From Ferrovaceae bacterium (GTDB taxonomy: Bacteria > Pseudomonadota > Gammaproteobacteria > Burkholderiales > Ferrovaceae), in the NCBI GenBank assembly GCA_027311025.1, contig DAICZS010000005.1, positions 7,784 to 71,783 on the forward strand: 64,000 nucleotides of DNA. The letters are read 5' to 3'. The notes under the pieces were generated by a model, which saw nothing but the letters and a program-made list of their open reading frames with translations, was not told where the DNA came from and did no database searches. The translations under genes were made by a program, and so were the position numbers. Below, in pieces: positions 32,501 through 43,423 of this stretch (the first letter of the stretch is position 1; the number at the start of each line of letters is the position of its first letter).

Positions 32501-33979
32501 ATGGCCTACGCCGATTTGCGCGAATTTCTGCGCGATCTGGAACAACAGGAACAGTTGCTGCGGGTCACCGAAGCGGTCGACCCACATCTTGAAAGCACCG
32601 CACTCTGCCAGAAAAGCCTGCGTGCTGGCGGGCCTGCCCTGCTGTTCACCAAGCCGCGCCATTCCCGCATGCCGCTTCTGGGTAACCTGTTTGGCAATCC
32701 CCAACGCATTCATGCCGCCCTGCACCATCGTGCCATCCGTTCCTTCCGCGAACTGGGAGAGTTGCTGGCGGCGCTGAAAGAACCCCGCATCCCTCGCGGC
32801 ATGAAGGGCTGGCTGCAGGCCTGGCCCGAGTACGCCCAGCTGGCCTACGCGCGCCCCCGTGAGGCTGGCCATGCTGCCTTTGAGGAGGTGGTCCTGAAAG
32901 GCCCCGATGTGGATCTTGGCCTGCTTCCCATCCAGCACTGTTGGCCCGAAGATGCGGGCAAACTCATCACCTTCGGCCTCGTGGTCACCCGCGGGCTACG
33001 CCAGGAACGCCAGAATGTGGCCATTTACCGTCAGCAGGTCATCGGCCGAAACCGGGTCATCATGCGCTGGCTGGCCCATCGCGGTGGTGCGCTGGATTAT
33101 GCGGACTGGCTGGCACGGCATCCTGACAAGCCTTATCCGGTGATGGTGGTGATCGGCGCCGACCCCTGCACCCTGCTGGCCGCCGTGGCACCGGTGCCCG
33201 ACACGCTGTCCGAATATGAATTTGCCGGGTTGCTGCGCGGAGAATCCACCTTGCTGCGCCGGGGTTACCTGTCAAACCTCGAGGCGCCCGCAGGGGCCGA
33301 GATCGTGCTGGAGGGCTTCATCTATCCCAACGATCGCGCCCTGGAAGGTCCCTTCGGTGACCATACGGGCTATTACAACAGCCAGGCTGAATTTCCCGTG
33401 TTCACCATTGAGCGCATGAGCATGCGCCATGATGCCATTTACCACGGCAGCTACATGGGGCGCGCCCCGCTGGATGAACCCTCGGTGCTGGCGCACGAAC
33501 TCAACGACATTTTCGTGCCGATCCTGACCCGTGTCTTTCCCGAAATCCGTGACTTCTATTTACCCCCAGAAGCCTGTTCCTACCGCATCGCCGTGGTGAG
33601 TCTCTCCAAGCAGTACCCGGGGCATGCCCGACGCATCATGATGGGGATATGGTCCTGGCTGCGGCAGTTTACCTACACCAAATTCGTGATTGTGGTGGAC
33701 GACGACATCGACATCCGAAACTGGTCCGAAATCCTGTGGGCCCTGTCCACGCGCATGGACCCCGTGCGCGATTGCCTGCTTCTGGAGAACACGCCCATCG
33801 ACTACCTGGATTTTGCCAGCCCCGAGGCGGGCCTGGGCGGAAAGATGGGGCTGGATGCCACCAACAAATGGCCCGGTGAAACCCATCGCGCATGGGGACG
33901 CCCCATCGTGCCCGACAGCAACGTCAACGCGCGCATGGAATCCCTGTGGCAACGCATTTTCAAGAAGGAGCCTTCATGA
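32501..33979 (+). CDS. ubiD: UbiD-family (prenyl-FMN-dependent) decarboxylase, 4-hydroxy-3-polyprenylbenzoate decarboxylase-like
   Basis: About 492 aa from ATG 32501 (MAYADLREFLRDLE...). UbiD-type blocks GPALLF, NVAIYR and GDHTGYY. Confidence 0.85.
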   Translation: MAYADLREFLRDLEQQEQLLRVTEAVDPHLESTALCQKSLRAGGPALLFTKPRHSRMPLLGNLFGNPQRIHAALHHRAIRSFRELGELLAALKEPRIPRGMKGWLQAWPEYAQLAYARPREAGHAAFEEVVLKGPDVDLGLLPIQHCWPEDAGKLITFGLVVTRGLRQERQNVAIYRQQVIGRNRVIMRWLAHRGGALDYADWLARHPDKPYPVMVVIGADPCTLLAAVAPVPDTLSEYEFAGLLRGESTLLRRGYLSNLEAPAGAEIVLEGFIYPNDRALEGPFGDHTGYYNSQAEFPVFTIERMSMRHDAIYHGSYMGRAPLDEPSVLAHELNDIFVPILTRVFPEIRDFYLPPEACSYRIAVVSLSKQYPGHARRIMMGIWSWLRQFTYTKFVIVVDDDIDIRNWSEILWALSTRMDPVRDCLLLENTPIDYLDFASPEAGLGGKMGLDATNKWPGETHRAWGRPIVPDSNVNARMESLWQRIFKKEPS

Positions 33980-34977
33980 CCATGGAACTGGTTTGTCCTG
34001 CCGGCAGCCCCGCCGCCCTCACCGCTGCCCTCGAACAGGGCGCTGACGCCATCTATCTGGGGCTGCGTAACCCCACCAATGCCCGTGCCTTTCCCGGACT
34101 GAACTTCGCTCCGGAAAACTTGCGTCTGGCCGTGGATGCCGCCCATGCCCGGGGCAAAAAAATCTATCTGGCCCTCAACACCTATCCCACCTCAGACCAA
34201 ATGGCGTTGTGGAAATCCAGTATCGATATCGCCGCAGAAGCGGGTGTCGATGCCCTCATCATGGCAGAAATGTCGCTGCTCGATTACGCCATCCGCCATC
34301 ACCCGGGCATCCCGCGCCACCTGTCCGTGCAGGGCTCGGCCACGAGTCCTGCAGCGCTGCGGTTTTTCCATGAGCAGTTTGGCATCAGCCGTGCCGTACT
34401 GCCGCGCGTACTCTCGCTGTCCCAGGTGGAACGCGTCTGCGAGAAGTCTCCCGTGGGGATCGAGGTCTTTGCCTTCGGCAGCCTGTGCATCATGGTGGAA
34501 GGTCGCTGCCAGCTGTCGAGTTTCGTCACCGGCCGCTCACCCAACTGTCACGGCGTGTGCTCGCCTGCCGAATACGTTCATTGGGAAGAGCTGCCAGGCG
34601 GGCGACGCCGGGTGCGACTGGGTGAGGTCCTCATCGATGAATTCGACGCGGGAGAATCAGCGAGCTACCCCACGGTGTGCAAGGGCCGCTATCGTGCCGG
34701 CGACACCCCTTTCTATGCCCTCGAGGAGCCCACCAGCCTCAATACGCTCGAACTGCTGCCACGCCTTGCCCAGGCCGGCGTCGTGGCCCTCAAGATCGAA
34801 GGACGTCAGCGTGGGCCCGCCTATGTAGGCAGTGTCACCCGCGTCTGGCGAGAGGCACTCGACACGCTGGAGCGCAAAGAAGGCTTTGTAGTGCGTCCGC
34901 AATGGCAGGAAGCACTGGCCCATGTGGCAGAAGGGCACCAGACCACCCTGGGTCCGTATCATCGGTCCTGGCATTGA
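33976..34977 (+). CDS. ubiU: U32-family protein, ubiquinone O2-independent hydroxylase subunit UbiU-like
   Basis: ATG 33976 (ATGA overlap with ubiD). Exact U32 signature E-x-F-x2-G-[SA]-[LIVM]-C-x4-G-x-C-x-[LIVM]-S, read as EVFAFGSLCIMVEGRCQLS. Further Cys at SPNCHGVC. Confidence 0.75.
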   Translation: MTMELVCPAGSPAALTAALEQGADAIYLGLRNPTNARAFPGLNFAPENLRLAVDAAHARGKKIYLALNTYPTSDQMALWKSSIDIAAEAGVDALIMAEMSLLDYAIRHHPGIPRHLSVQGSATSPAALRFFHEQFGISRAVLPRVLSLSQVERVCEKSPVGIEVFAFGSLCIMVEGRCQLSSFVTGRSPNCHGVCSPAEYVHWEELPGGRRRVRLGEVLIDEFDAGESASYPTVCKGRYRAGDTPFYALEEPTSLNTLELLPRLAQAGVVALKIEGRQRGPAYVGSVTRVWREALDTLERKEGFVVRPQWQEALAHVAEGHQTTLGPYHRSWH

Positions 34978-34990
34978 ACCAGGAGCTTCC

Positions 34991-35896
34991 ATGAAAATCA
35001 GTCTGGGCCCGCTGCAGTATTTCTGGAGAAAATCAGAAGTCATGGATTTTTATCGCGAGGCCGCAAACTGGCCCGTTGATGTGTTCTACCTGGGAGAAAC
35101 GGTCTGTAGCAAGCGCCGGGAGATGCGCCTCAAGGACTGGCTGGAACTGGGTGCCATCCTGGCTGACCAGGGTCGTGAGGTGGTGTTGTCCACGCTGGCC
35201 CTGGTGGAAGCCGAATCGGAGCTGGCCGCCCTGCAACGTCTCGTGGACAACCAGCGATTTGCCGTGGAAGCCAACGATCTTTCCTCGGTACAACTCTGCC
35301 GCGAGCGCGGTGTTCCCTTTGTGGGTGGGCCCACCCTGAACATCTACAATCATGAAACCCTGGCCCTGCTGCAGCGCAGCGGCTTGACCCGCCTGGTACT
35401 GGGGGTAGATCAGGGCGCTCCACAACTGGAAGCGCTGCAGCGACAGGCCCAACTTGCAGGGCACGATTTTCCTGAACTGGAAATTCAGGGTTGGGGCCGG
35501 TTGCCGCTGGCCTACTCCGCGCGCTGCTTCACCGCCCGTGCCCACGATGTGCCCAAAGATGACTGCGGCTTCTGCTGCCTGGAATACCCGGATGGACTAC
35601 CCGTAAGCACCCGAGAGGGACAGCCTTTCCTGACCCTCAACGGCATTCAGGTGCAAAGCACCGCATGTGGTGACCTGGGACCGGAGTTGAATGAACTGGC
35701 AGTCCTTGGTGTGGACATCGTGCGCGTTGCCCCCCAGCGGGAGGGCACTGGCGCGGTGGTGCAGCGGTTTGCCGAAGCGCTGTCGCAAGGGCGGACCGCA
35801 CCACGTCATGGTGACTGCAACGGTTACTGGCACGGTGGTGCCGGCATGGCGCAGATCTCCCCTACCGCAATTTCGATGCAAGTCCCTGGAGCATGA
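34991..35896 (+). CDS. ubiV: U32-family protein, UbiV-like
   Basis: ATG 34991 after AGGAG. Cys pattern GETVCSKR ... ARCFTARAHDVPKDDCGFCC has the spacing I recall for the E. coli UbiV Fe-S ligands. Confidence 0.7.
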   Translation: MKISLGPLQYFWRKSEVMDFYREAANWPVDVFYLGETVCSKRREMRLKDWLELGAILADQGREVVLSTLALVEAESELAALQRLVDNQRFAVEANDLSSVQLCRERGVPFVGGPTLNIYNHETLALLQRSGLTRLVLGVDQGAPQLEALQRQAQLAGHDFPELEIQGWGRLPLAYSARCFTARAHDVPKDDCGFCCLEYPDGLPVSTREGQPFLTLNGIQVQSTACGDLGPELNELAVLGVDIVRVAPQREGTGAVVQRFAEALSQGRTAPRHGDCNGYWHGGAGMAQISPTAISMQVPGA

Positions 35897-36438
35897 TCCT
35901 CATGGCAATTTCAAACCTCCTCATTCCGGAAAACATTCCACCCCAAGTGCTGCGACTGCTTCCTCCTCCCCAGGCATTGAGGCATGGCGTGCGCCTCATC
36001 CCCCAGGAATGGCGGGGCCGCATCCTGACGAAGCTCATGAATAGTCTGGTGGCCAGTGCGCTACCCCCAGAAACGCTGGCCTTTCTGGAGCAACGCCGAC
36101 TGGCCATCGAGGTGGAAGACCTGGGGCTTCGCTGGGTGTTCATGGGTGCAGGAGGAAAACTGCAATCCCTGCCCATAGACACTGCCGCCGAGGTCACGAT
36201 CCGTGGCAAGACGCTCGATCTGCTCTTGCTGGGTAGCCAGTTGGAAGACGCCGATACCCTTTTCTTTCAACGTCGTCTGACCATGACGGGGGACACGGCG
36301 CTGGGCCTGGAAACCCGCAACGTTCTGGACCAACTCCCGTGGGAGCGACTCACGCCGGGATTGCGCATTGCACTCAACCGCATCGCGCGTGTGGCTCAGG
36401 CAGCCCATGAGGTGCGCAGTAAAACATTCCGGAAATGA
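35893..36438 (+). CDS. ubiT: SCP2-domain lipid-binding accessory factor, UbiT-like
   Basis: 181 aa. ATGA overlap with ubiV. SCP2-like C-terminal half (FFQRRLTMTGDTALGLETRNVL). Confidence 0.65.
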   Translation: MILMAISNLLIPENIPPQVLRLLPPPQALRHGVRLIPQEWRGRILTKLMNSLVASALPPETLAFLEQRRLAIEVEDLGLRWVFMGAGGKLQSLPIDTAAEVTIRGKTLDLLLLGSQLEDADTLFFQRRLTMTGDTALGLETRNVLDQLPWERLTPGLRIALNRIARVAQAAHEVRSKTFRK

Positions 36439-36846: not shown

Positions 36847-36944
36847 AGGATCGGAACGGGTATCAATGACGCTTTGGGTTTTTGACAATTGCCTGATGGA
36901 TACTATACTTGAAGCAAATCGGCCGGGACAACGCTGGAAGCACC

Positions 36945-38945
36945 ATGCACCTCAACAAGAACAAATTGATCGGTTTTCTGTTGCTGGCGATACTGTCCCA
37001 GAATTCCTTTGCCGTGACGGATGCCGAAGTCTTTTCTTATGCGGCCGCGAATTATCCCAGCCTTTTCACCGGGGCAGCCACCAGTGGACAATTTCAGCAA
37101 TACAGCTACCAATACTACCCTGCCACCGGTAATTATATCGCCGTAGACACCACCGGCACGGTCTATATCCTCGGCCCGGTGGCCACTGATGGCGCGATCA
37201 CTGCAGTTGGTCCTGTCACCGCATTTGCGGCCGCCATCAACTCCTGGCAATCTAACGGCGGAAGTTACCTGCTGAAGCATGCAGGGGTGTACACGTACTT
37301 CGAAGAACGAGGAGGGGCCTCGGGATATTGGCCAGGTCAGTCCATCCAGACCTGGAGTCAATATGATTCCGTGGTCGGAAGCACGGTGGCGCAGGAAGTC
37401 TCACTGCAACTCGACAAGTTAAAGGCAATGGGAGTCAATACCCTCACCATTGACCTACGCACCGCTGATCCAACCGCCACAGGCAATTTCACGCCTCCTG
37501 ACTGCAATGAACCTCCTGTGCTCGGACTCCAGTTTCCCCAACCTACGGCCACCGAACTTGCAAACTTGCCCCTGCTCTTTGATGCTGCGCAGAGCAAAGG
37601 CATGAAAATCTGGCTGCGTTTGGTCAATTCCCATATGGAGCAGTCGCCCCCAACGAACATCCAGACCTGGCTGACAGCCATCCTGGGCGCCATTGGACAA
37701 AAGCCGGCGCTTGATCTGGTGATGTTTGATGGAACCACCTATCTCGTCACCAATGCCAACGGCACGCAAAGTTGTGGCATTCCGGCAGAACCGCCCTTAT
37801 GGTTGGGCCCAACCTCCATTCCTGCGACTTACGTCCAGTGGGCCATTGGATACGCGATGTCCCTGGGCATTCCCGCACAAAAACTATCCGCTGAAGCCGT
37901 TGTGGGTGACTTCTTTCTGGACAGCCAGCCGCCGTCCGGATCAACGGCCACGGACAGCCACCTCTGGTCACCGATTGCAGTCGAGAAAACCATTTTCGAC
38001 AACCTGGGCATTCCCGCAAGTCAACGCACTTACGCCTTGTCCTTCTATGAACACAGAAAATGCTCGGACGCCCAGTCGCTGCCGTGTACAGACACCAATC
38101 CACATGATTGGGCAGACCAAACCTTGCAGAATGTCACCAATGTCGTAGGGTCTGGCCCACGAATCGTCGCCACAGAAATGGGCGATGAAACCCCAGTAGA
38201 CCAGACGAACTGGAACACGCAGCATGCAATGGAAAGCATCGTCTTCCTGCTGCATAAATACGGCATCGATGGCGGCGCATTCTGGCGCTGGACCAGTTTT
38301 TACGACACCGAAGACAAAGACACGACGCTGGCCTCACCGATCAAGCAACGCGGCGTGACGTTTACCTACAATCCCGTACAGAAAGAAATCCTGGACATGG
38401 GGGGGTTTCATGTTTCGCCCATTCCAAACGGCTCGTTTGAGGGTGCCGCAATCGGTGGCGTTCCAGAGGGCTGGACGGTTTCAGGCAGCGGTACGGCTTA
38501 CCAGTATTTATTGACGCAGGAAGGAGCCACACAGCCTGAAGTACCATCCCGGGGGGTGTATGCCATGCGAATCATTACCGGTCCCGCAAGCGCCACCATC
38601 AGTGCCAGCAGCGTCAAGATTCCAGTAACTGCAGCAACCGCCTACACGACGACGGCAAATTTGCGATTTGCCTGGGCGGGTGATCCAGCCGCAGGCACGG
38701 GCCCTTCACTTTCAAGGCCACAGGTATTTGTGTCAGTGCTCTATTATCAGGCAAGCGGTTCTGCCTCGGCCCTGCGTGCGCAGGACTATTACGCGTTCTA
38801 CCAGGAAGACAGCACGACAGGGTTTGGCACATTCCCCATTCAATACACCACGCCAGGCGATGCGGCCTACGTCGTGATCCAGTTTGGTGCATCACGCAAC
38901 GGGCTGGCCACTCCGATCACGCTGGATGTGGATAATGTCCGCTGA
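36945..38945 (+). CDS. hypothetical secreted protein; possible clan GH-A-like glycosidase barrel plus C-terminal CBM-like domain
   Basis: 666 aa from ATG 36945. Signal peptide MHLNKNKLIGFLLLAILSQNSFA. Motifs GVNTLTIDL, NEP, VATEMGDE and FWRW, with a C-terminal NGSFEG...GW beta-sandwich-like module. The function call is weak. Confidence 0.4.
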   Translation: MHLNKNKLIGFLLLAILSQNSFAVTDAEVFSYAAANYPSLFTGAATSGQFQQYSYQYYPATGNYIAVDTTGTVYILGPVATDGAITAVGPVTAFAAAINSWQSNGGSYLLKHAGVYTYFEERGGASGYWPGQSIQTWSQYDSVVGSTVAQEVSLQLDKLKAMGVNTLTIDLRTADPTATGNFTPPDCNEPPVLGLQFPQPTATELANLPLLFDAAQSKGMKIWLRLVNSHMEQSPPTNIQTWLTAILGAIGQKPALDLVMFDGTTYLVTNANGTQSCGIPAEPPLWLGPTSIPATYVQWAIGYAMSLGIPAQKLSAEAVVGDFFLDSQPPSGSTATDSHLWSPIAVEKTIFDNLGIPASQRTYALSFYEHRKCSDAQSLPCTDTNPHDWADQTLQNVTNVVGSGPRIVATEMGDETPVDQTNWNTQHAMESIVFLLHKYGIDGGAFWRWTSFYDTEDKDTTLASPIKQRGVTFTYNPVQKEILDMGGFHVSPIPNGSFEGAAIGGVPEGWTVSGSGTAYQYLLTQEGATQPEVPSRGVYAMRIITGPASATISASSVKIPVTAATAYTTTANLRFAWAGDPAAGTGPSLSRPQVFVSVLYYQASGSASALRAQDYYAFYQEDSTTGFGTFPIQYTTPGDAAYVVIQFGASRNGLATPITLDVDNVR

Positions 38946-38980
38946 CCCCCACCCCTGCATCACGGGATCAAGCCAACGGT

Positions 38981-39160
38981 TCACCCATTTCGATGCGGAA
39001 ATCGTCGCAAGCCCGCGCGCAGAAACTGCAACTGTTTGTTGAAGTTACGGCAGCCGTCGCACACCATCAGGTGAATTCGCAGGCTGGTCTGCCGCCACAA
39101 GCCAAGCTTTTTATCCATGCCCTGCGACATCAACGCGGTAGCCTGTTTACAATTCAGCAT
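38981..39160 (-). CDS. small zinc-binding (ZAS, zf-HC2) anti-sigma factor, no TM segment
   Basis: 59 aa from ATG 39160: MLNCKQATALMS...RIHLMVCDGCRNFNKQ. Shows C-x25-H-x3-C-x2-C. Overlaps the sigma-gene stop by 14 nt (ATG 39175 is the alternative). Confidence 0.75.
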   Translation of the reverse strand: MLNCKQATALMSQGMDKKLGLWRQTSLRIHLMVCDGCRNFNKQLQFLRAGLRRFPHRNG

Positions 39161-39719
39161 CCCGGTCCCCCGCATTAAACCACCGATCATCAAGACAAAG
39201 CCTGAGCGCCATGCGCGCCCGATGCAGTACAACCCAACAATTAGTCGGGCTGATGGCCAATTCCTTACATATTTCTTCGGTATCCAGATCCAGCATCTCG
39301 CGCATCATGAAAACCCGTGCGGTATTTTCGGGTAGGCGCGTCAGACAGATTTCAAATATTTTCCAGAACTGTTGACTGGAAAAACTGCTCTCGGGGTCAC
39401 CCCAAGCCGACGGGCGCGTATCCGCATTCCAGTGATCCCTCTCGTCAAAAAGGTCGTCGTAGGCATTTTCAGGAATTTCTTCCAGGGCTGCCCCTGTACT
39501 GCTAAAGCGGGCGCGTTCACGAATGATGTCAACGATCTTGTTCTTGAGAATGGCAAATACCCAGGTCTTGAGCTGTGCACGATTACCGAATGACTGCTTG
39601 CCAATCAGAACTGCCGCCATGGTCTCCTGCACCGCATCTTCTGCTGAACTTTCGTCACGCAACTGCAACCATGCAAATTTCAGCATGTCACTTCTGAATG
39701 AGATCAGTTCATTTTCCAT
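39147..39719 (-). CDS. ECF-type RNA polymerase sigma-70 factor
   Basis: 190 aa. Region 2 (DAVQETMAAVL...WVFAILKNKIVDIIR) and region 4.2 HTH (EEICKELAISPTNCWVVLHRARMALR). Confidence 0.88.
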   Translation of the reverse strand: MENELISFRSDMLKFAWLQLRDESSAEDAVQETMAAVLIGKQSFGNRAQLKTWVFAILKNKIVDIIRERARFSSTGAALEEIPENAYDDLFDERDHWNADTRPSAWGDPESSFSSQQFWKIFEICLTRLPENTARVFMMREMLDLDTEEICKELAISPTNCWVVLHRARMALRLCLDDRWFNAGDRDAEL

Positions 39720-39825
39720 GGGCGAAGCATAACAATTTTTGAAATCCCTGTAAGGATTCCGCAGGCATTGCGACTAACAAGCGGGGACACATTCTCCGTT
39801 TCAATCAATCCAACCTGAGGAGTTT

Positions 39826-40092
39826 ATGATGAACAATCGTCGCATGATTGCTGCCGCAATGGGAAGTTTGCTGTTACTTGGCCTGGCTAGTAGCAGTGCC
39901 ATGGCGGGTGACAAGCCAGAAATGGAAAAATGCTTTGGTATCGCCAAGGCGGGCAAGAATGACTGCTCCAGCAACAAGAGCGCCCATTCTTGCGCAGGCC
40001 AGGCCACTAAAGACAGGGATCCCATGGATTTTGTCGCAGTGCCCAAGGGAACCTGCGAACGAATCGCTGACGGTCAGTTGAAGAAAATGTAA
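39826..40092 (+). CDS. bufA: DUF2282-family Cys-containing secreted peptide = bufferin-type RiPP precursor (BufA1/GigP-like)
   Basis: 88 aa. GAGGAG SD. Sec signal [27 protein letters not shown]|G. Core motifs [20 protein letters not shown] and VPKGTCE are typical of DUF2282. Confidence 0.85.
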
Positions 40093-40934
40093 TGGAAAAG
40101 CCCGCAACGCACTCCCTGCCATGCGCAGCCGGTATTGGGTTGCGGGCACCTCATTACCTTGAGGTGTTGAATGAACGCCCCCATCTGGGCTGGGTGGAAG
40201 TCCACAGCGAAAACTTTTTCGGTGGTGGCGCACCCTTGAATACCCTGCGCCAGGTGCGTAACCATTATCCGGTCAGTCTGCATGGCGTGGGCATGGGACT
40301 GGCCTCCACCCGGGCTCTGGACCAGACGCATCTGTCGGATTTACGTCGACTGTGTGACATGATCCAACCTGCTGCCGTCTCAGAGCATCTCTGCTGGAAT
40401 GCGTCAGGAGGCTACGTAATCAACGATCTGCTGCCATTTCCTTATACCGAAGAGGCCCTGGCGCATGTGGTGTCTCGCATCGATCACGTTCAGGAAAGAC
40501 TGGACCGCCAGCTTCTGGTGGAGAACCTGTCATCCTATTTATCGTTTAGCCATAGTGAAATGACTGAAGGCGAGTTTATGTCCGAACTGGCAGACCGCAC
40601 AGGATGCGGCATCCTGCTTGACGTCGAAAACCTGTATGTGAACACGTGCAATCTGGGCGTTGACGCCAAAGCCTTTATCGCATCCATCCCGGTTGACGCA
40701 GTAAAGGAATTTCATCTGGCAGGATACAGCGAAAGGAACGGTTGCCTGGTGGACACGCACGACCATCCCGTCAGTACGGAAGTGTGGAGGCTATATGAGT
40801 ACGCGTTACTGCAAATTGGCCCGCGCCCAACCCTGATCGAATGGGACAGTGACATTCCTGCCCTGGGTGTCTTGATGGGTGAGGCGGCAGAGGCGCAGCG
40901 CAGACTGGAGCAGCATGATGTCCAGGCTGCATGA
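40092..40934 (+). CDS. bufB: DUF692 / MNIO (multinuclear non-heme iron oxidase, MbnB-like) RiPP-modifying enzyme
   Basis: 280 aa. TIM-barrel DUF692 blocks GIGLRAPHY, VEVHSENF, SLHGVG, VSEHL, LLVENLS, LLDVENLYVN, EFHLAGY, VDTHDHPV and LIEWD. Start overlaps the bufA stop (TAATG). Confidence 0.88.
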   Translation: MEKPATHSLPCAAGIGLRAPHYLEVLNERPHLGWVEVHSENFFGGGAPLNTLRQVRNHYPVSLHGVGMGLASTRALDQTHLSDLRRLCDMIQPAAVSEHLCWNASGGYVINDLLPFPYTEEALAHVVSRIDHVQERLDRQLLVENLSSYLSFSHSEMTEGEFMSELADRTGCGILLDVENLYVNTCNLGVDAKAFIASIPVDAVKEFHLAGYSERNGCLVDTHDHPVSTEVWRLYEYALLQIGPRPTLIEWDSDIPALGVLMGEAAEAQRRLEQHDVQAA

Positions 40935-41700
40935 CACTCTGTCAGATTTCACTTACTGCATCATCACCGGACTGGGGCTTTCAGATGAAACCACGGCCGT
41001 ATGCCCCAATTATCGCATCGAAACTGCGCTCGATATTTACCGCAATAATTATCGCGGCAACCTCCATGACGCGCTGAGCCATGCCTACCCCGTCATTGAA
41101 CAACTGGTAGGCAAGGACTATTTTCGGTACCTGTCGCGGCATTACGTGGATCGACACCCTTCTGTCAGTGGCAACCTTCATCAGTATGGCGCGGAAATGG
41201 CAGAATTTATTGCCGGCTTTGAATCTGCAAAAGGGCTGGCTTACCTGCCCGACGTTGCCGAACTGGAGTGGGCTTGCCATTGCGCCTATTTTGCGGAAGA
41301 TGCAGGCAAACTCGATGTCATGGCGCTCGCGAAAATCCCACAAGCGCAGTATGCCGACCTGATCCTGAATACGCATCCATCATGCCAGATGGTGCGTTCC
41401 GATTACCCGATTGCGTCCATATGGAATGCACATCAACCTGATGCCGATGGTGACTTCCACGTCACCCTGGATGGCATTCCATCCCATACCCTGGTCAGCC
41501 GGAAGGATCATGCAGTGAAAATCAGTGCGCTCTCTGAACCAGAAGCCACATGGCTGGCGTGGATCCGGTCAGGCGCCTCCCTGGGTAAGTCAACCGATGC
41601 GGCAGTAAATCAATGCGCTGCCTTTGACCTCCATGGCCTGCTGTTGAAATTGATCGATGACGGCGTTTTGATTCACTTTACTTTGAGGAGTACCCCATGA
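40915..41700 (+). CDS. bufC: DUF2063-family protein (MNIO partner / precursor-recognition subunit, BufC-like)
   Basis: About 261 aa from ATG 40915. DUF2063 blocks DIYRNNYRGNL, AYPVIEQLVG..YF and YLPDVAELEWA. 20-nt overlap with bufB. Confidence 0.82.
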   Translation: MMSRLHDTLSDFTYCIITGLGLSDETTAVCPNYRIETALDIYRNNYRGNLHDALSHAYPVIEQLVGKDYFRYLSRHYVDRHPSVSGNLHQYGAEMAEFIAGFESAKGLAYLPDVAELEWACHCAYFAEDAGKLDVMALAKIPQAQYADLILNTHPSCQMVRSDYPIASIWNAHQPDADGDFHVTLDGIPSHTLVSRKDHAVKISALSEPEATWLAWIRSGASLGKSTDAAVNQCAAFDLHGLLLKLIDDGVLIHFTLRSTP

Positions 41701-42179
41701 AAGCACTCTCATGCATGGCCAGGACTTATTACAGGGCATCACACTGGCCGGAATACCTGTCCCCCGTCATGGATCTTGGGCTAAGACTCTATCTTGCCCA
41801 GGTATTCTTCAAATCCGGATTGACAAAGATTTCCAATTGGCAGGGCACGCTATACCTGTTCAATGATGTATATCAGGTGCCGCTTCTGCCGCCGGAGGCC
41901 GCGGCCACCCTGGCGACCAGCGCAGAACTGGGGTTGCCCATATTACTGGTACTGGGTTTGTTGGGCAGATTATCCGCGGCAGGACTATTCATTCTCAATG
42001 CGGTTGCCGTCATTTCATATGCTGATTTAAGCGAGGGAGGCATCAACCAGCATATTTCATGGGGACTGCTACTCGCCGTCCTGCTCACACTCAACCACAA
42101 AAGCTGGTCAATGGATGCCTGGCTGGAAAAGCACCTGCAGGCAGCACCCCGAAAAAAATGCGTTGGTCGAGATGCCTAA
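41697..42179 (+). CDS. bufD: DoxX-family integral membrane protein (BufD-like)
   Basis: 160 aa with about 4 TM helices. DoxX-type RLYLAQVFFKSGLTK start. ATGA overlap with bufC. Confidence 0.8.
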   Translation: MKALSCMARTYYRASHWPEYLSPVMDLGLRLYLAQVFFKSGLTKISNWQGTLYLFNDVYQVPLLPPEAAATLATSAELGLPILLVLGLLGRLSAAGLFILNAVAVISYADLSEGGINQHISWGLLLAVLLTLNHKSWSMDAWLEKHLQAAPRKKCVGRDA

Positions 42180-43318
42180 TGCTTGCCTGACAGGAACTCG
42201 ATCACCGCAGCGTTAAACCGCTCTGGCTCCTCCAGATGTGGAACATGGCCTACGCCATCGAACTCCACCAGTTTGGCGCCGGGAATGGCCTGCTGTGCCG
42301 CCTTGCCCAGCACGGGAAAATTGCCAAGGGCCCTGACTCCGTCAGGGGAAACAAAGCGGCGACCAAACACGGTGCGGTCGAGCTGACCGATTACCAGCAG
42401 GGTCGGTACTTTCAGTTTTGGCAACTCGTTGAAGATGGGACCTTCATAAATCATTTGGTAGGTCAGCGCAGACACATGAGCGAAACGCGGGTATTCCGGG
42501 CTCTGCTGCACGCGCGAAAATTGCTCCACAAAGCGCTCGTATTCAGTTTTCCAGTTGGAAAAATAACCCTGGAGAAACTTGCGGTAGCTGTCGGGGGTTT
42601 GTGCCATTTCCAGTTTCACCAGCGCGGCCGTGTTCTGTGGCGGTATGCTGGCCCGATAATCTTCCAGACCCAAGGGATTTTCCAGAACCAGCGCCCAGAC
42701 GCGCTCGGGATGACGATTGGCAAAATGGACGCCCAGCATTCCTCCCATGCTGTTGGCAACGATCGCTATGCGCCCTGTTTTCAGGGTATCCAGCAGCAGC
42801 GTGGTATTGGAGACCAGCTGCTCGAAAGTGTAACGCGACTCCGGCTTCGATGATTTTCCAAAACCGATCTGATCTGGGGCAATGACTCGATAACCACGCT
42901 CGGACAAAGCCCGTATGGTTTGGGCCCAGTAATCAGAGCCAAAATTCTTGCCGTGGAGCAGCACCACCGTGCGCCCATTGGGATGAGCGGGCTGCACATC
43001 CATGTACGTCATGCGCAAAATCCGGCCGTGCTCCTTGAATTGCATCATCTGCGTTGGGTACGGATAAACCCAGCCTTCCATGGCAACACCCAGCGGCTCT
43101 GCTCCTGCATAGGGATGGGACACTGCAATGGCAGTTGACGGGGTGGCAATCGGCACTGTGTCGACCGGAAATTTTGCTGGTGACGCCAATGCTGCGGGAT
43201 TCGGTGTTGCCGTTGCAGTTGCAGCCAAGGTTGCAGGAGCCGATGGCAGCTGAAAATCGGCGCAACCCGCCAGCAATGCGGACACAATGAACAGGAGGAT
43301 ATGGAACGGGCGGAGCAT
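42176..43318 (-). CDS. alpha/beta-fold hydrolase, lipoprotein
   Basis: 380 aa. Lipobox LLAGC at residues 15-19, HG oxyanion block VVLLHGKNF, and nucleophile elbow ANSMGG. Confidence 0.75.
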   Translation of the reverse strand: MLRPFHILLFIVSALLAGCADFQLPSAPATLAATATATPNPAALASPAKFPVDTVPIATPSTAIAVSHPYAGAEPLGVAMEGWVYPYPTQMMQFKEHGRILRMTYMDVQPAHPNGRTVVLLHGKNFGSDYWAQTIRALSERGYRVIAPDQIGFGKSSKPESRYTFEQLVSNTTLLLDTLKTGRIAIVANSMGGMLGVHFANRHPERVWALVLENPLGLEDYRASIPPQNTAALVKLEMAQTPDSYRKFLQGYFSNWKTEYERFVEQFSRVQQSPEYPRFAHVSALTYQMIYEGPIFNELPKLKVPTLLVIGQLDRTVFGRRFVSPDGVRALGNFPVLGKAAQQAIPGAKLVEFDGVGHVPHLEEPERFNAAVIEFLSGKH

Positions 43319-43338: not shown

Positions 43339-43423
43339 TGGTGCCGTGGAGAGGACTCGAACCTCCACACCTTGCGGCGGCAGGACCTAAACCTGCTGCG
43401 TCTACCAATTTCGCCACCACGGC
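43339..43423 (-). tRNA. tRNA-Leu (anticodon TAG)
   Basis: Reverse complement reads GCCGTGGTGGCGAAATTGGTAGACGCAGCAGGTTTAGGTCCTGCCGCCGCAAGGTGTGGAGGTTCGAGTCCTCTCCACGGCACCA. Long variable arm. Anticodon loop TTTAGGT. Confidence 0.93.

Follow-up and report, generated by a model that had tools for sequence, protein, structure and literature searches.

A Buf1-type bufferin gene cluster with a predicted MseR-type sigma/anti-sigma switch in an uncultured Ferrovaceae bacterium

The window analyzed here, a stretch of 64,000 nucleotides (nt) from contig DAICZS010000005.1 of the Ferrovaceae bacterium assembly GCA_027311025.1, carries six tightly packed genes at positions 38981-42179. Four of them, bufA to bufD, lie on the plus strand and make up a predicted bufferin cluster, and a divergent pair on the minus strand encodes an extracytoplasmic function (ECF) sigma factor and a small anti-sigma factor. 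An earlier note, made from the DNA letters, had described four fused plus-strand genes next to a divergent sigma/anti-sigma pair, and all of these genes were found on the expected strands in the list of open reading frames (ORFs) and the raw sequence. The locus comprises the following features.

38981-39160, minus strand: anti-sigma factor of the zinc-binding anti-sigma (ZAS) type, 59 amino acids (aa), matching PF13490 and NF052368
39147-39719, minus strand: ECF sigma factor with regions 2 and 4, 190 aa, matching PF04542, PF08281, and TIGR02943
39240-39268, minus strand: second sigma-E-type promoter motif, GTAAGGAAT-N12-CGACTAAT, within the sigma gene
39750-39778, plus strand: predicted ECF-dependent bufABCD promoter, with -35 element GTAAGGATT, 12-nt spacer, and -10 element CGACTAAC
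39779-39801, plus strand: hairpin AAGCGGGGA-CACAT-TCTCCGTTT with which the predicted bufA mRNA begins
39826-40092, plus strand: bufA, bufferin precursor, 88 aa, matching PF10048
40092-40934, plus strand: bufB, multinuclear non-haem iron oxidase (MNIO), 280 aa, matching NF050167
40915-41700, plus strand: bufC, DUF2063/HvfC_N partner protein of the MNIO, 261 aa, matching PF09836
41697-42179, plus strand: bufD, DoxX-family membrane protein, accessory component, 160 aa, matching PF07681

The gene junctions can be read directly from the raw sequence. bufA and bufB are joined by TAATG (40090-40094), and bufC and bufD by ATGA (41697-41700). The overlap between bufB and bufC measures 20 nt with the bufC start placed at the ATG at 40915 and 17 nt with the next ATG, at 40918. 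The homologs of bufC mostly use the equivalent of the latter (260 aa), and 40918 is likely the true start. On the minus strand, the anti-sigma ATG overlaps the 3' end of the sigma gene by 14 nt. The mechanical ORF of the anti-sigma gene opens at a TTG and would be 83 aa long; we place the start at the ATG at 39160, because the NCBIfam profile begins there and the TTG frame merely reads through the end of the sigma gene. A gap of 106 nt separates the sigma ATG from that of bufA.

Searches with the DUF2282, DUF692/MNIO, DUF2063, and DoxX profiles, proposed by the earlier note as a check, all gave scores above the cut-offs, at levels that chance cannot explain. BufA matches PF10048 (DUF2282/BufA1) with 90.7 bits (cut-off, 22.4) over profile positions 1-53 of 53. 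Its N-terminus, judged by eye, is a Sec-type signal peptide of residues 1-27 (ending in ...AMA, with GD following), after which comes a 61-aa core. The four Cys residues, CysI to CysIV, are at positions 36, 47, 56, and 77. Among the closest relatives the core is nearly invariant, with the Cys residues and their flanks conserved, and inspection of the precursor sequence revealed no EGKCG repeat. Four Cys residues together with a signal peptide are the defining architecture of Buf1 precursors (PMC11626156), and it is this architecture that the predicted BufA has.

BufB scored 367.9 bits against the NF050167 MNIO_BufB equivalog (cut-off, 310) and 345.3 bits against PF05114 (MbnB_TglH_ChrH), while it remained below the cut-offs of HvfB (215.3 versus 360), MbnB (67 versus 325), ApyH, and ChrH. 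In alignments with 3BWW, TglH (8HCI), and MbnB (7TCR), residues H99, E144, D177, N180, H208, D221, and H223 are identical. H64 has a counterpart in the 3BWW alignment alone and E250 in those of 3BWW and TglH, both falling outside the MbnB alignment. Judging by the MbnB structures, the aligned residues are putative iron ligands. By analogy with characterized enzymes, BufB, as an MNIO, is expected to convert Cys to 5-thiooxazole.

The N-terminal domain of BufC matches PF09836 (DUF2063) with 74.5 bits (cut-off, 27.2); against the HvfC profile it reached 49.6 bits, below the cut-off of 142. A sequence search of the PDB with BufC gave no hit at an E value of 1 or below. In Buf1 clusters the C-terminal domain of the DUF2063 partner is RRE-like; in the AlphaFold model of BufC, built from 42 homologs, only residues 200-250 are confident (predicted local distance difference test [pLDDT] score, 82-88), with a strand-strand-helix-helix-helix fold. 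Foldseek returned for this low-confidence model as top hit TglI, the partner of the MNIO TglH, at an E value of 4.6e-4 and a template modeling (TM) score of only 0.27, a match that is at most suggestive. BufD passed the cut-off of PF07681 (DoxX; 66.8 bits versus 23.6) and not that of HvfX (57.2 bits versus 80). Buf1 clusters often have a DoxX gene as their fourth gene.

A scan of one genome per species yielded more than 550 BufB relatives. The best 80 of these, 69-79% identical to BufB, form the basis of the genome counts over 80 loci given below and come mostly from Gallionellaceae, Nitrosomonadales, Ferrovaceae, Sideroxydans, and Nitrotoga genomes. Around bufB, a bufC gene was present in all 80 loci, bufA in 77, and bufD in 71. 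The exact BufB protein was also found in the metagenome-assembled genome GCA_027307865.1. Passing of the curated cut-offs, including that of the BufB equivalog, and the bufABCD synteny in relatives back the earlier assignment to a bufferin/gig-type metallophore cluster of the class of RiPPs (peptides that are synthesized ribosomally and modified post-translationally).

The sigma factor encoded next to bufA matches PF04542 (Sigma70_r2), PF08281 (Sigma70_r4_2), and TIGR02943, the last with 243 bits (cut-off, 162.2). Its anti-sigma partner matches PF13490 (zf-HC2) with 25.7 bits (cut-off, 22.2) and NCBIfam NF052368 ("antisigmaE") with 77 bits (cut-off, 50), and profile searches gave no match to the NrsF family (PF06532). 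It is cytoplasmic, lacks a membrane segment, and shows Cys4 and a His30-x3-Cys34-x2-Cys37 layout. These four positions are identical in Neisseria MseR (NMB2145), where Cys substitutions at the same positions abolish anti-sigma activity and His30Ala does not (PMC2893595). Its predicted features place the regulator with Neisseria sigma-E/MseR (Haemophilus RpoE2/HrsE), which act as a thiol/zinc switch in the cytoplasm. The membrane-sensing SigF/NrsF-RpoQ kind was considered as well and is ruled out by the 59-aa zf-HC2 anti-sigma factor, with neither an NrsF match nor a SigF-type promoter. A small anti-sigma gene follows the sigma gene in 75 of 80 metagenome loci. The ECF reclassification paper says nothing on the gene context of this sigma group.

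Comparison of the regions upstream of bufA across relatives revealed the conserved motif TGTAAGGAAT-N-CGACTAA. The window's GTAAGGATT-N12-CGACTAAC at 39750-39778 has one mismatch (A for T in the -10 element) to the Neisseria-derived sigma-E consensus, GTMAGBWTT-N12/13-CGTCTAAH (PMC2893595). This consensus has two matches in the 64 kb, with 0.01 expected, and the strict sigma-E-type motif occurs at a single site in the 64 kb, ending at 39778, 48 nt upstream of the bufA ATG and 31 nt from the sigma start codon. No match to the SigF-type motif GTAACC-N16-CGAA was found in the window, and a simple sigma-70 promoter scan found no sigma-70-like promoter upstream of bufA. Simple promoter and terminator scans likewise gave nothing convincing for a sigma-70 promoter of the sigma gene or a terminator at the end of bufD. 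By eye, we noticed TTACAG-N16-TGTTATGCT just upstream of the sigma ATG, which, speculatively, could give a nearly leaderless mRNA. Control of bufABCD by the ECF sigma factor is a well-supported prediction, because the promoter fits the Neisseria sigma-E consensus, the motif is rare in the window, and this sigma type drives DoxX/MNIO/DUF2063 clusters elsewhere. The earlier note's proposal of control by an ECF sigma/ZAS anti-sigma pair thereby gains a candidate promoter, one that recurs upstream of bufA in relatives.

The second consensus match (39268-39240, minus strand) falls within the sigma gene, where the sequence also codes for CKELAISPTN (region 4.2), and the anti-sigma ATG follows about 80 nt downstream. 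It is retained in all eight genome loci with a homologous sigma gene, even where the encoded residue differs, the codon before ACT being CCG, TCG, GCG, or ACG. In 16 distinct metagenome sequences whose sigma factors are at least 71% identical to that of the window, the codons forming the -35 and -10 elements are nearly fixed (TGT, 15/16; AAG, 16/16; GAA, 16/16; ACT, 15/16), whereas the spacer codons vary freely at synonymous sites. More distant sigma genes lack the motif. We infer that the embedded motif acts as a sigma-dependent promoter of the anti-sigma gene and would thus provide negative feedback. In several relatives, SigF-like (ECF16-type) sigma genes likewise contain, within their coding region, a match to the promoter type of their own sigma factor, GTAACCGAA...TACGAA (in the numbered related loci, L040:381-407, L042:771-797, L060:3218-3244, and L080:2662-2688), a parallel to the embedded promoter of the window's sigma gene.

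The predicted bufA leader begins with a hairpin, after which come the conserved sequence ATCAA(T/C)C(C)AAC and a GGAG ribosome-binding site. Single-sequence folding gave the hairpin an energy of -10.3 kcal/mol and a z score of -1.28. Over 59 loci, the signal was modest, the mean z score being -1.06 versus +0.11 for an upstream control segment, and in the alignment only three pairs were in register, with loops of unequal length and a covariation term of -0.51 kcal/mol. An Rfam scan of the whole window matched four tRNAs only and nothing in the bufA leader. The hairpin is a weak candidate feature.

Promoter types could be compared for the 74 related loci with enough upstream sequence. Ahead of bufA, 21 of them carried only a sigma-E-type motif, 38 only a SigF-type motif, three both, and 12 neither. 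Operons with both promoter types include L015 and L019. In the 24 loci with a sigma-E-type motif, this motif lay about 80 nt upstream of bufA, and it was also found ahead of bufA in all six sigma-adjacent metagenome loci where this region was visible. It seems that bufABCD operons have been swapped between, or are shared by, two unrelated ECF circuits. If true, a clade of iron-oxidizer-like Betaproteobacteria would be exchanging its bufferin operons between these circuits.

The intergenic region of the window differs from that of its closest relatives. In L004, L005, L085, and L086, the stretch divergent from the sigma gene carries two sigma-E-type promoters, the first ahead of a 40-codon gene and the second between this gene and bufA. 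Up to the -35 element, the window matches the first promoter of these relatives, and from the -10 element through the leader it matches the second (window positions 39720-39830 compared with L005:2997-3130 and L005:3246-3345). The bufA promoter of the window is therefore a chimera, and it seems that roughly 236 bp between two tandem promoters were deleted, the 40-codon gene among them. A search of the window found neither a 40-aa Cys-rich peptide nor a second bufferin cluster.

The 40-codon gene recurs among relatives. Its product reads MSLMC(S/P)xxGCKQKxGMCxHEK ahead of a single membrane helix and belongs to no Pfam or NCBIfam family. In about 17 related loci the gene, with a sigma-E-type promoter of its own, is the immediate divergent neighbor of the sigma gene, and it is the commonest divergent target of this sigma factor in the clade (L004:3289-3453, L005:3128-3250, L085:1147-1025 on the minus strand, L086:2399-2277 on the minus strand, and L087-L103). 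The product may be a small membrane peptide with which this regulon senses metals or redox state. Behind a sigma-E-type motif, relatives also carry genes for an ArsM-like methyltransferase (recognized by eye), for a periplasmic protein resembling thioredoxin, and for proteins that have a signal peptide and NPCAAK repeats and resemble further Cys-rich metal-binding peptides (L019:1449-2489, L036:1789-2826, L036:6897-7322, L036:6796-6131 on the minus strand, and L021:3390-3124 on the minus strand).

We consider it very probable that the locus is a Buf1-type bufferin (captophorin) cluster, bufABCD, controlled by the ECF sigma factor encoded next to it together with the small anti-sigma factor, which is cytoplasmic and binds zinc. 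The order of the genes, their families, the conservation of the metal-ligand residues, and the promoter motifs with their conservation were observed directly. For the chemistry, the metal specificity, the induction, and every biochemical and regulatory step, we infer by homology to the Caulobacter, Neisseria, and Haemophilus systems the following course of events. Thiol-reactive stress, caused by copper, an oxidant such as hypochlorite, or both, would inactivate the anti-sigma factor and free the sigma factor. RNA polymerase carrying this sigma factor would start at the promoter at 39750-39778 and produce bufABCD as one translationally coupled message. In the cytoplasm, BufB and BufC, with an iron cofactor and O2, would turn Cys47 and Cys56 of BufA into 5-thiooxazoles. 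BufA would then be exported by the Sec pathway and cleaved after Ala27, and Cys36 and Cys77 would form a disulfide. The 61-residue product may chelate periplasmic Cu(I)/Cu(II) and so buffer copper stress, and the promoter copy inside the sigma gene would raise anti-sigma expression and shut the response off.

Several observations weigh against this reading. Most of the close relatives (38 of 74) carry the SigF-type promoter instead, and the sigma/anti-sigma pair adjoins bufABCD in only about eight of 80 genome loci and about 12 of 80 sigma-centered loci; linkage of the pair to bufABCD is therefore facultative. The Neisseria MseR study saw no induction of sigma-E by peroxide, diamide, or singlet oxygen (PMC2893595), and for this reason the inducing signal is uncertain. 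The BufC model is poor overall (mean pLDDT, 58), and the organism is known solely as a metagenome-assembled genome.

Facultative linkage and the prevalence of SigF-type promoters would fit a sigma/anti-sigma pair that is merely a neighbor, with bufABCD transcribed from another promoter by a sigma factor encoded elsewhere. Such a situation has a precedent of a kind in Cupriavidus metallidurans, where rpoQ lies beside gig but its control of these genes could not be demonstrated (PMC13492112). We nevertheless regard it as improbable here, since the window holds no SigF-type motif and no sigma-70-like promoter was found upstream of bufA, since the only strict sigma-E-type motif in 64 kb sits between the sigma start and bufA, and since the same motif precedes the cognate anti-sigma gene. 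A likelier alternative, though itself unlikely, is that a bufferin is made and that its main role is defense against oxidative, hypochlorite, or thiol stress rather than copper. It is raised by the wiring of the operon to a cytoplasmic redox-type ZAS anti-sigma factor, not to the periplasm-facing NrsF of copper-responsive systems. The regulator is of the MseR/HrsE type, and the Haemophilus influenzae sigma factor of this type responds to HOCl and H2O2 and controls msrAB as well as an MNIO cluster (PMC7907618). In addition, the same promoter drives thioredoxin-like and ArsM-like genes in related loci, and DoxX homologs have been tied to oxidative and sulfur stress (PMC12452194). Against it, thiooxazole peptides of Haemophilus and Neisseria were reported to support copper detoxification (PMC13097082), and thiol-reactive Cu(I) could trigger a ZAS switch; the copper and oxidant roles are not exclusive.

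Two further explanations concern the pathway itself, and both appear very remote. The locus would be an MNIO cluster of the oxazolin/HvfABC or methanobactin type rather than Buf1 if the weaker matches to HvfB, HvfC, and HvfX, and a regulator type as in the Haemophilus and Neisseria clusters, were given precedence. This is hardly credible with HvfB (215 versus 360) and MbnB (67 versus 325) failing their cut-offs where BufB passes, and with a precursor that is a full-length DUF2282 match without EGKCG repeats. Alternatively, the DUF2063 protein might be a DNA-binding transcription factor and the locus not a RiPP pathway at all. The old Pfam description and the deposited names ("putative DNA-binding domain") point that way, and the NGO1945 structure paper proposed a regulatory role (PMC2954202). 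We give this scarcely any credence: BufC1 and BufB1 are necessary and sufficient for modification in vitro (PMC11626156), and the best fold match of the BufC model, itself of low confidence, is the MNIO partner TglI. The role as a DNA-binding transcription factor has been superseded by the published biochemistry.

Returning to the bufferin cluster under its adjacent sigma/anti-sigma pair, we find the locus to be intact and ordinary for its family, which is large and whose characterization is recent but thorough. Its departures from the model systems are, as far as prediction goes, regulatory only and comprise the MseR-type switch, the embedded feedback promoter, and the fused promoter. The presence of sigma genes in Buf1 clusters and the action of this sigma type on MNIO operons have both already been described. 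What would be new as a whole is the wiring, not the pathway, namely, a Buf1 operon placed under an MseR-type switch instead of SigF/NrsF, a promoter within region 4.2 codons that feeds back only on the anti-sigma gene, and a bufA promoter born by deletion between tandem promoters with loss of the 40-residue peptide gene. We advance this combination tentatively, as a possibility that falls somewhat short of an even chance.

The genes surrounding the locus include housekeeping functions (ubiT/U/V-like, radA, dnaB, and SDR). Two U32-peptidase-family genes followed by an SCP2-domain gene occupy 33892-36438 on the plus strand, a set that resembles ubiU/ubiV/ubiT of oxygen-independent ubiquinone synthesis. 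A 678-aa ORF with a signal-peptide-like N-terminus (36909-38945, plus strand) converges on the anti-sigma gene, from which 35 nt separate it, and occurs as well in the source contig of the metagenome-assembled genome; it gave no Pfam or NCBIfam match even at permissive thresholds. At the other end, the stop of bufD overlaps that of a convergent alpha/beta-hydrolase gene (42176-43318, minus strand) at 42176-42179, leaving no space for a terminator between them. A tRNA-Leu gene lies at 43339-43423 on the minus strand, 1.2 kb downstream of the cluster, and the G+C content of 38001-42000 is 53.7-54.0%, compared with about 56-62% for most of the window. The low G+C content, the nearby tRNA-Leu gene, and the variable context of bufABCD in relatives hint at horizontal acquisition of the cluster.

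The earlier note had ranked this as the most likely novel-system locus, a view that does not stand, as the family has been characterized biochemically, surveyed genome-wide (PMC11626156, PMC12452194, PMC13097082), and given dedicated Pfam and NCBIfam models. Its expectation that the genes would be annotated as hypothetical or DUF proteins is true of the deposited records, in which these proteins and their close relatives are named UPF0276, putative DNA-binding domain, hypothetical, or putative oxidoreductase. It is no longer true of current profile libraries, in which Pfam uses the labels BufA1 and HvfC_N and NCBIfam the label BufB. The practical value of the analysis is correct annotation: the four proteins should be listed as a bufferin precursor, its maturase, the partner of the maturase, and a DoxX accessory protein. 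With this locus, another uncultured betaproteobacterium joins the very many bacteria that carry a periplasmic copper-buffering peptide, and there is now a clear case of a Buf1 operon with a predicted cytoplasmic ECF switch of the ZAS type. No new question on the chemistry or function of the family is raised, and the regulatory details and the 40-residue peptide are minor leads.

The founding cluster of the family is buf1ABCD of Caulobacter vibrioides (CCNA_03363-03366), which has the same DUF2282-MNIO-DUF2063-DoxX order, a Sec signal, four Cys residues, and a nearby ECF sigma gene (PMC11626156). In the Caulobacter bufferins, described in 2024, 5-thiooxazoles arise from the two central Cys residues, and a disulfide links the outer two. 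BufB and BufC are necessary and sufficient for the modification, and DoxX is dispensable for both modification and function. Copper induces the bufferin, which is exported by the Sec pathway, has a very high affinity for both Cu(II) and Cu(I), and confers protection from copper (PMC11626156). The Caulobacter system differs from ours in its regulation, using SigF (ECF16), the six-helix membrane anti-sigma factor NrsF, and a GTAACC-N16-CGAA promoter where the window has a 59-aa soluble ZAS protein and GTAAGGATT-N12-CGACTAAC, and in the length of the core peptide (68 residues in Caulobacter, 61 in the window). A survey of 2025 provided a catalogue of bufferin gene clusters and reported sigma and NrsF genes in Buf1 clusters (PMC12452194), and a study of 2026 brought tens of thousands of such MNIOs together as captophorins and verified that the products of Haemophilus and Neisseria contain thiooxazoles (PMC13097082).

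The gigPABT operon of C. metallidurans, with rpoQ-rsqA, is homologous in its four genes and has a divergently placed ECF sigma/anti-sigma pair as in the window. The gig/RpoQ analogy drawn by the earlier note thus holds for the layout, but not for the regulator type, RpoQ being an ECF16 sigma factor and RsqA membrane-bound; moreover, the 2026 transcription-start study stated that RpoQ control of gig "could not be demonstrated" (PMC13492112). In Sinorhizobium meliloti, SMb20530-20527, under RpoE7, is likewise an ECF-dependent DUF692 and DUF2063 operon, with mapped promoters (PMC6180224); there the sigma factor is of the ECF16 type and the promoters read GTAACA-N16-CGAA.

The Neisseria meningitidis/gonorrhoeae genes NMB2140-2145 (DoxX, precursor, DUF692, DUF2063, sigma-E, and MseR) share with the window the ZAS layout, the promoter consensus, and MNIO/DUF2063/DoxX genes under sigma control (PMC2893595). 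In Neisseria, a single autoregulated operon comprises all six genes, and gonophorin, an EGKCG-repeat peptide, is the precursor (PMC13097082), whereas the window has a DUF2282 precursor, a divergent sigma pair, and a sigma-type promoter for the anti-sigma gene but not for the sigma gene. RpoE2/HrsE of H. influenzae resembles the window pair in its cytoplasmic ZAS anti-sigma factor (about 60-67 aa), and this sigma factor raises the expression of a DoxX/MNIO/DUF2063 cluster (PMC7907618). That cluster, hvf (oxazolin), is unlinked to the sigma gene, has an oxazolin-type precursor, and uses HvfB as its MNIO. In the methanobactin system MbnABC, as in the bufferins, an MNIO and a partner turn Cys residues of a ribosomal peptide into a copper-binding heterocycle/thio group. 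Its MNIO is distant, and its product, made with a leader peptide and released by dedicated export, serves copper uptake as a secreted chalkophore and is not a periplasmic buffer exported by Sec.

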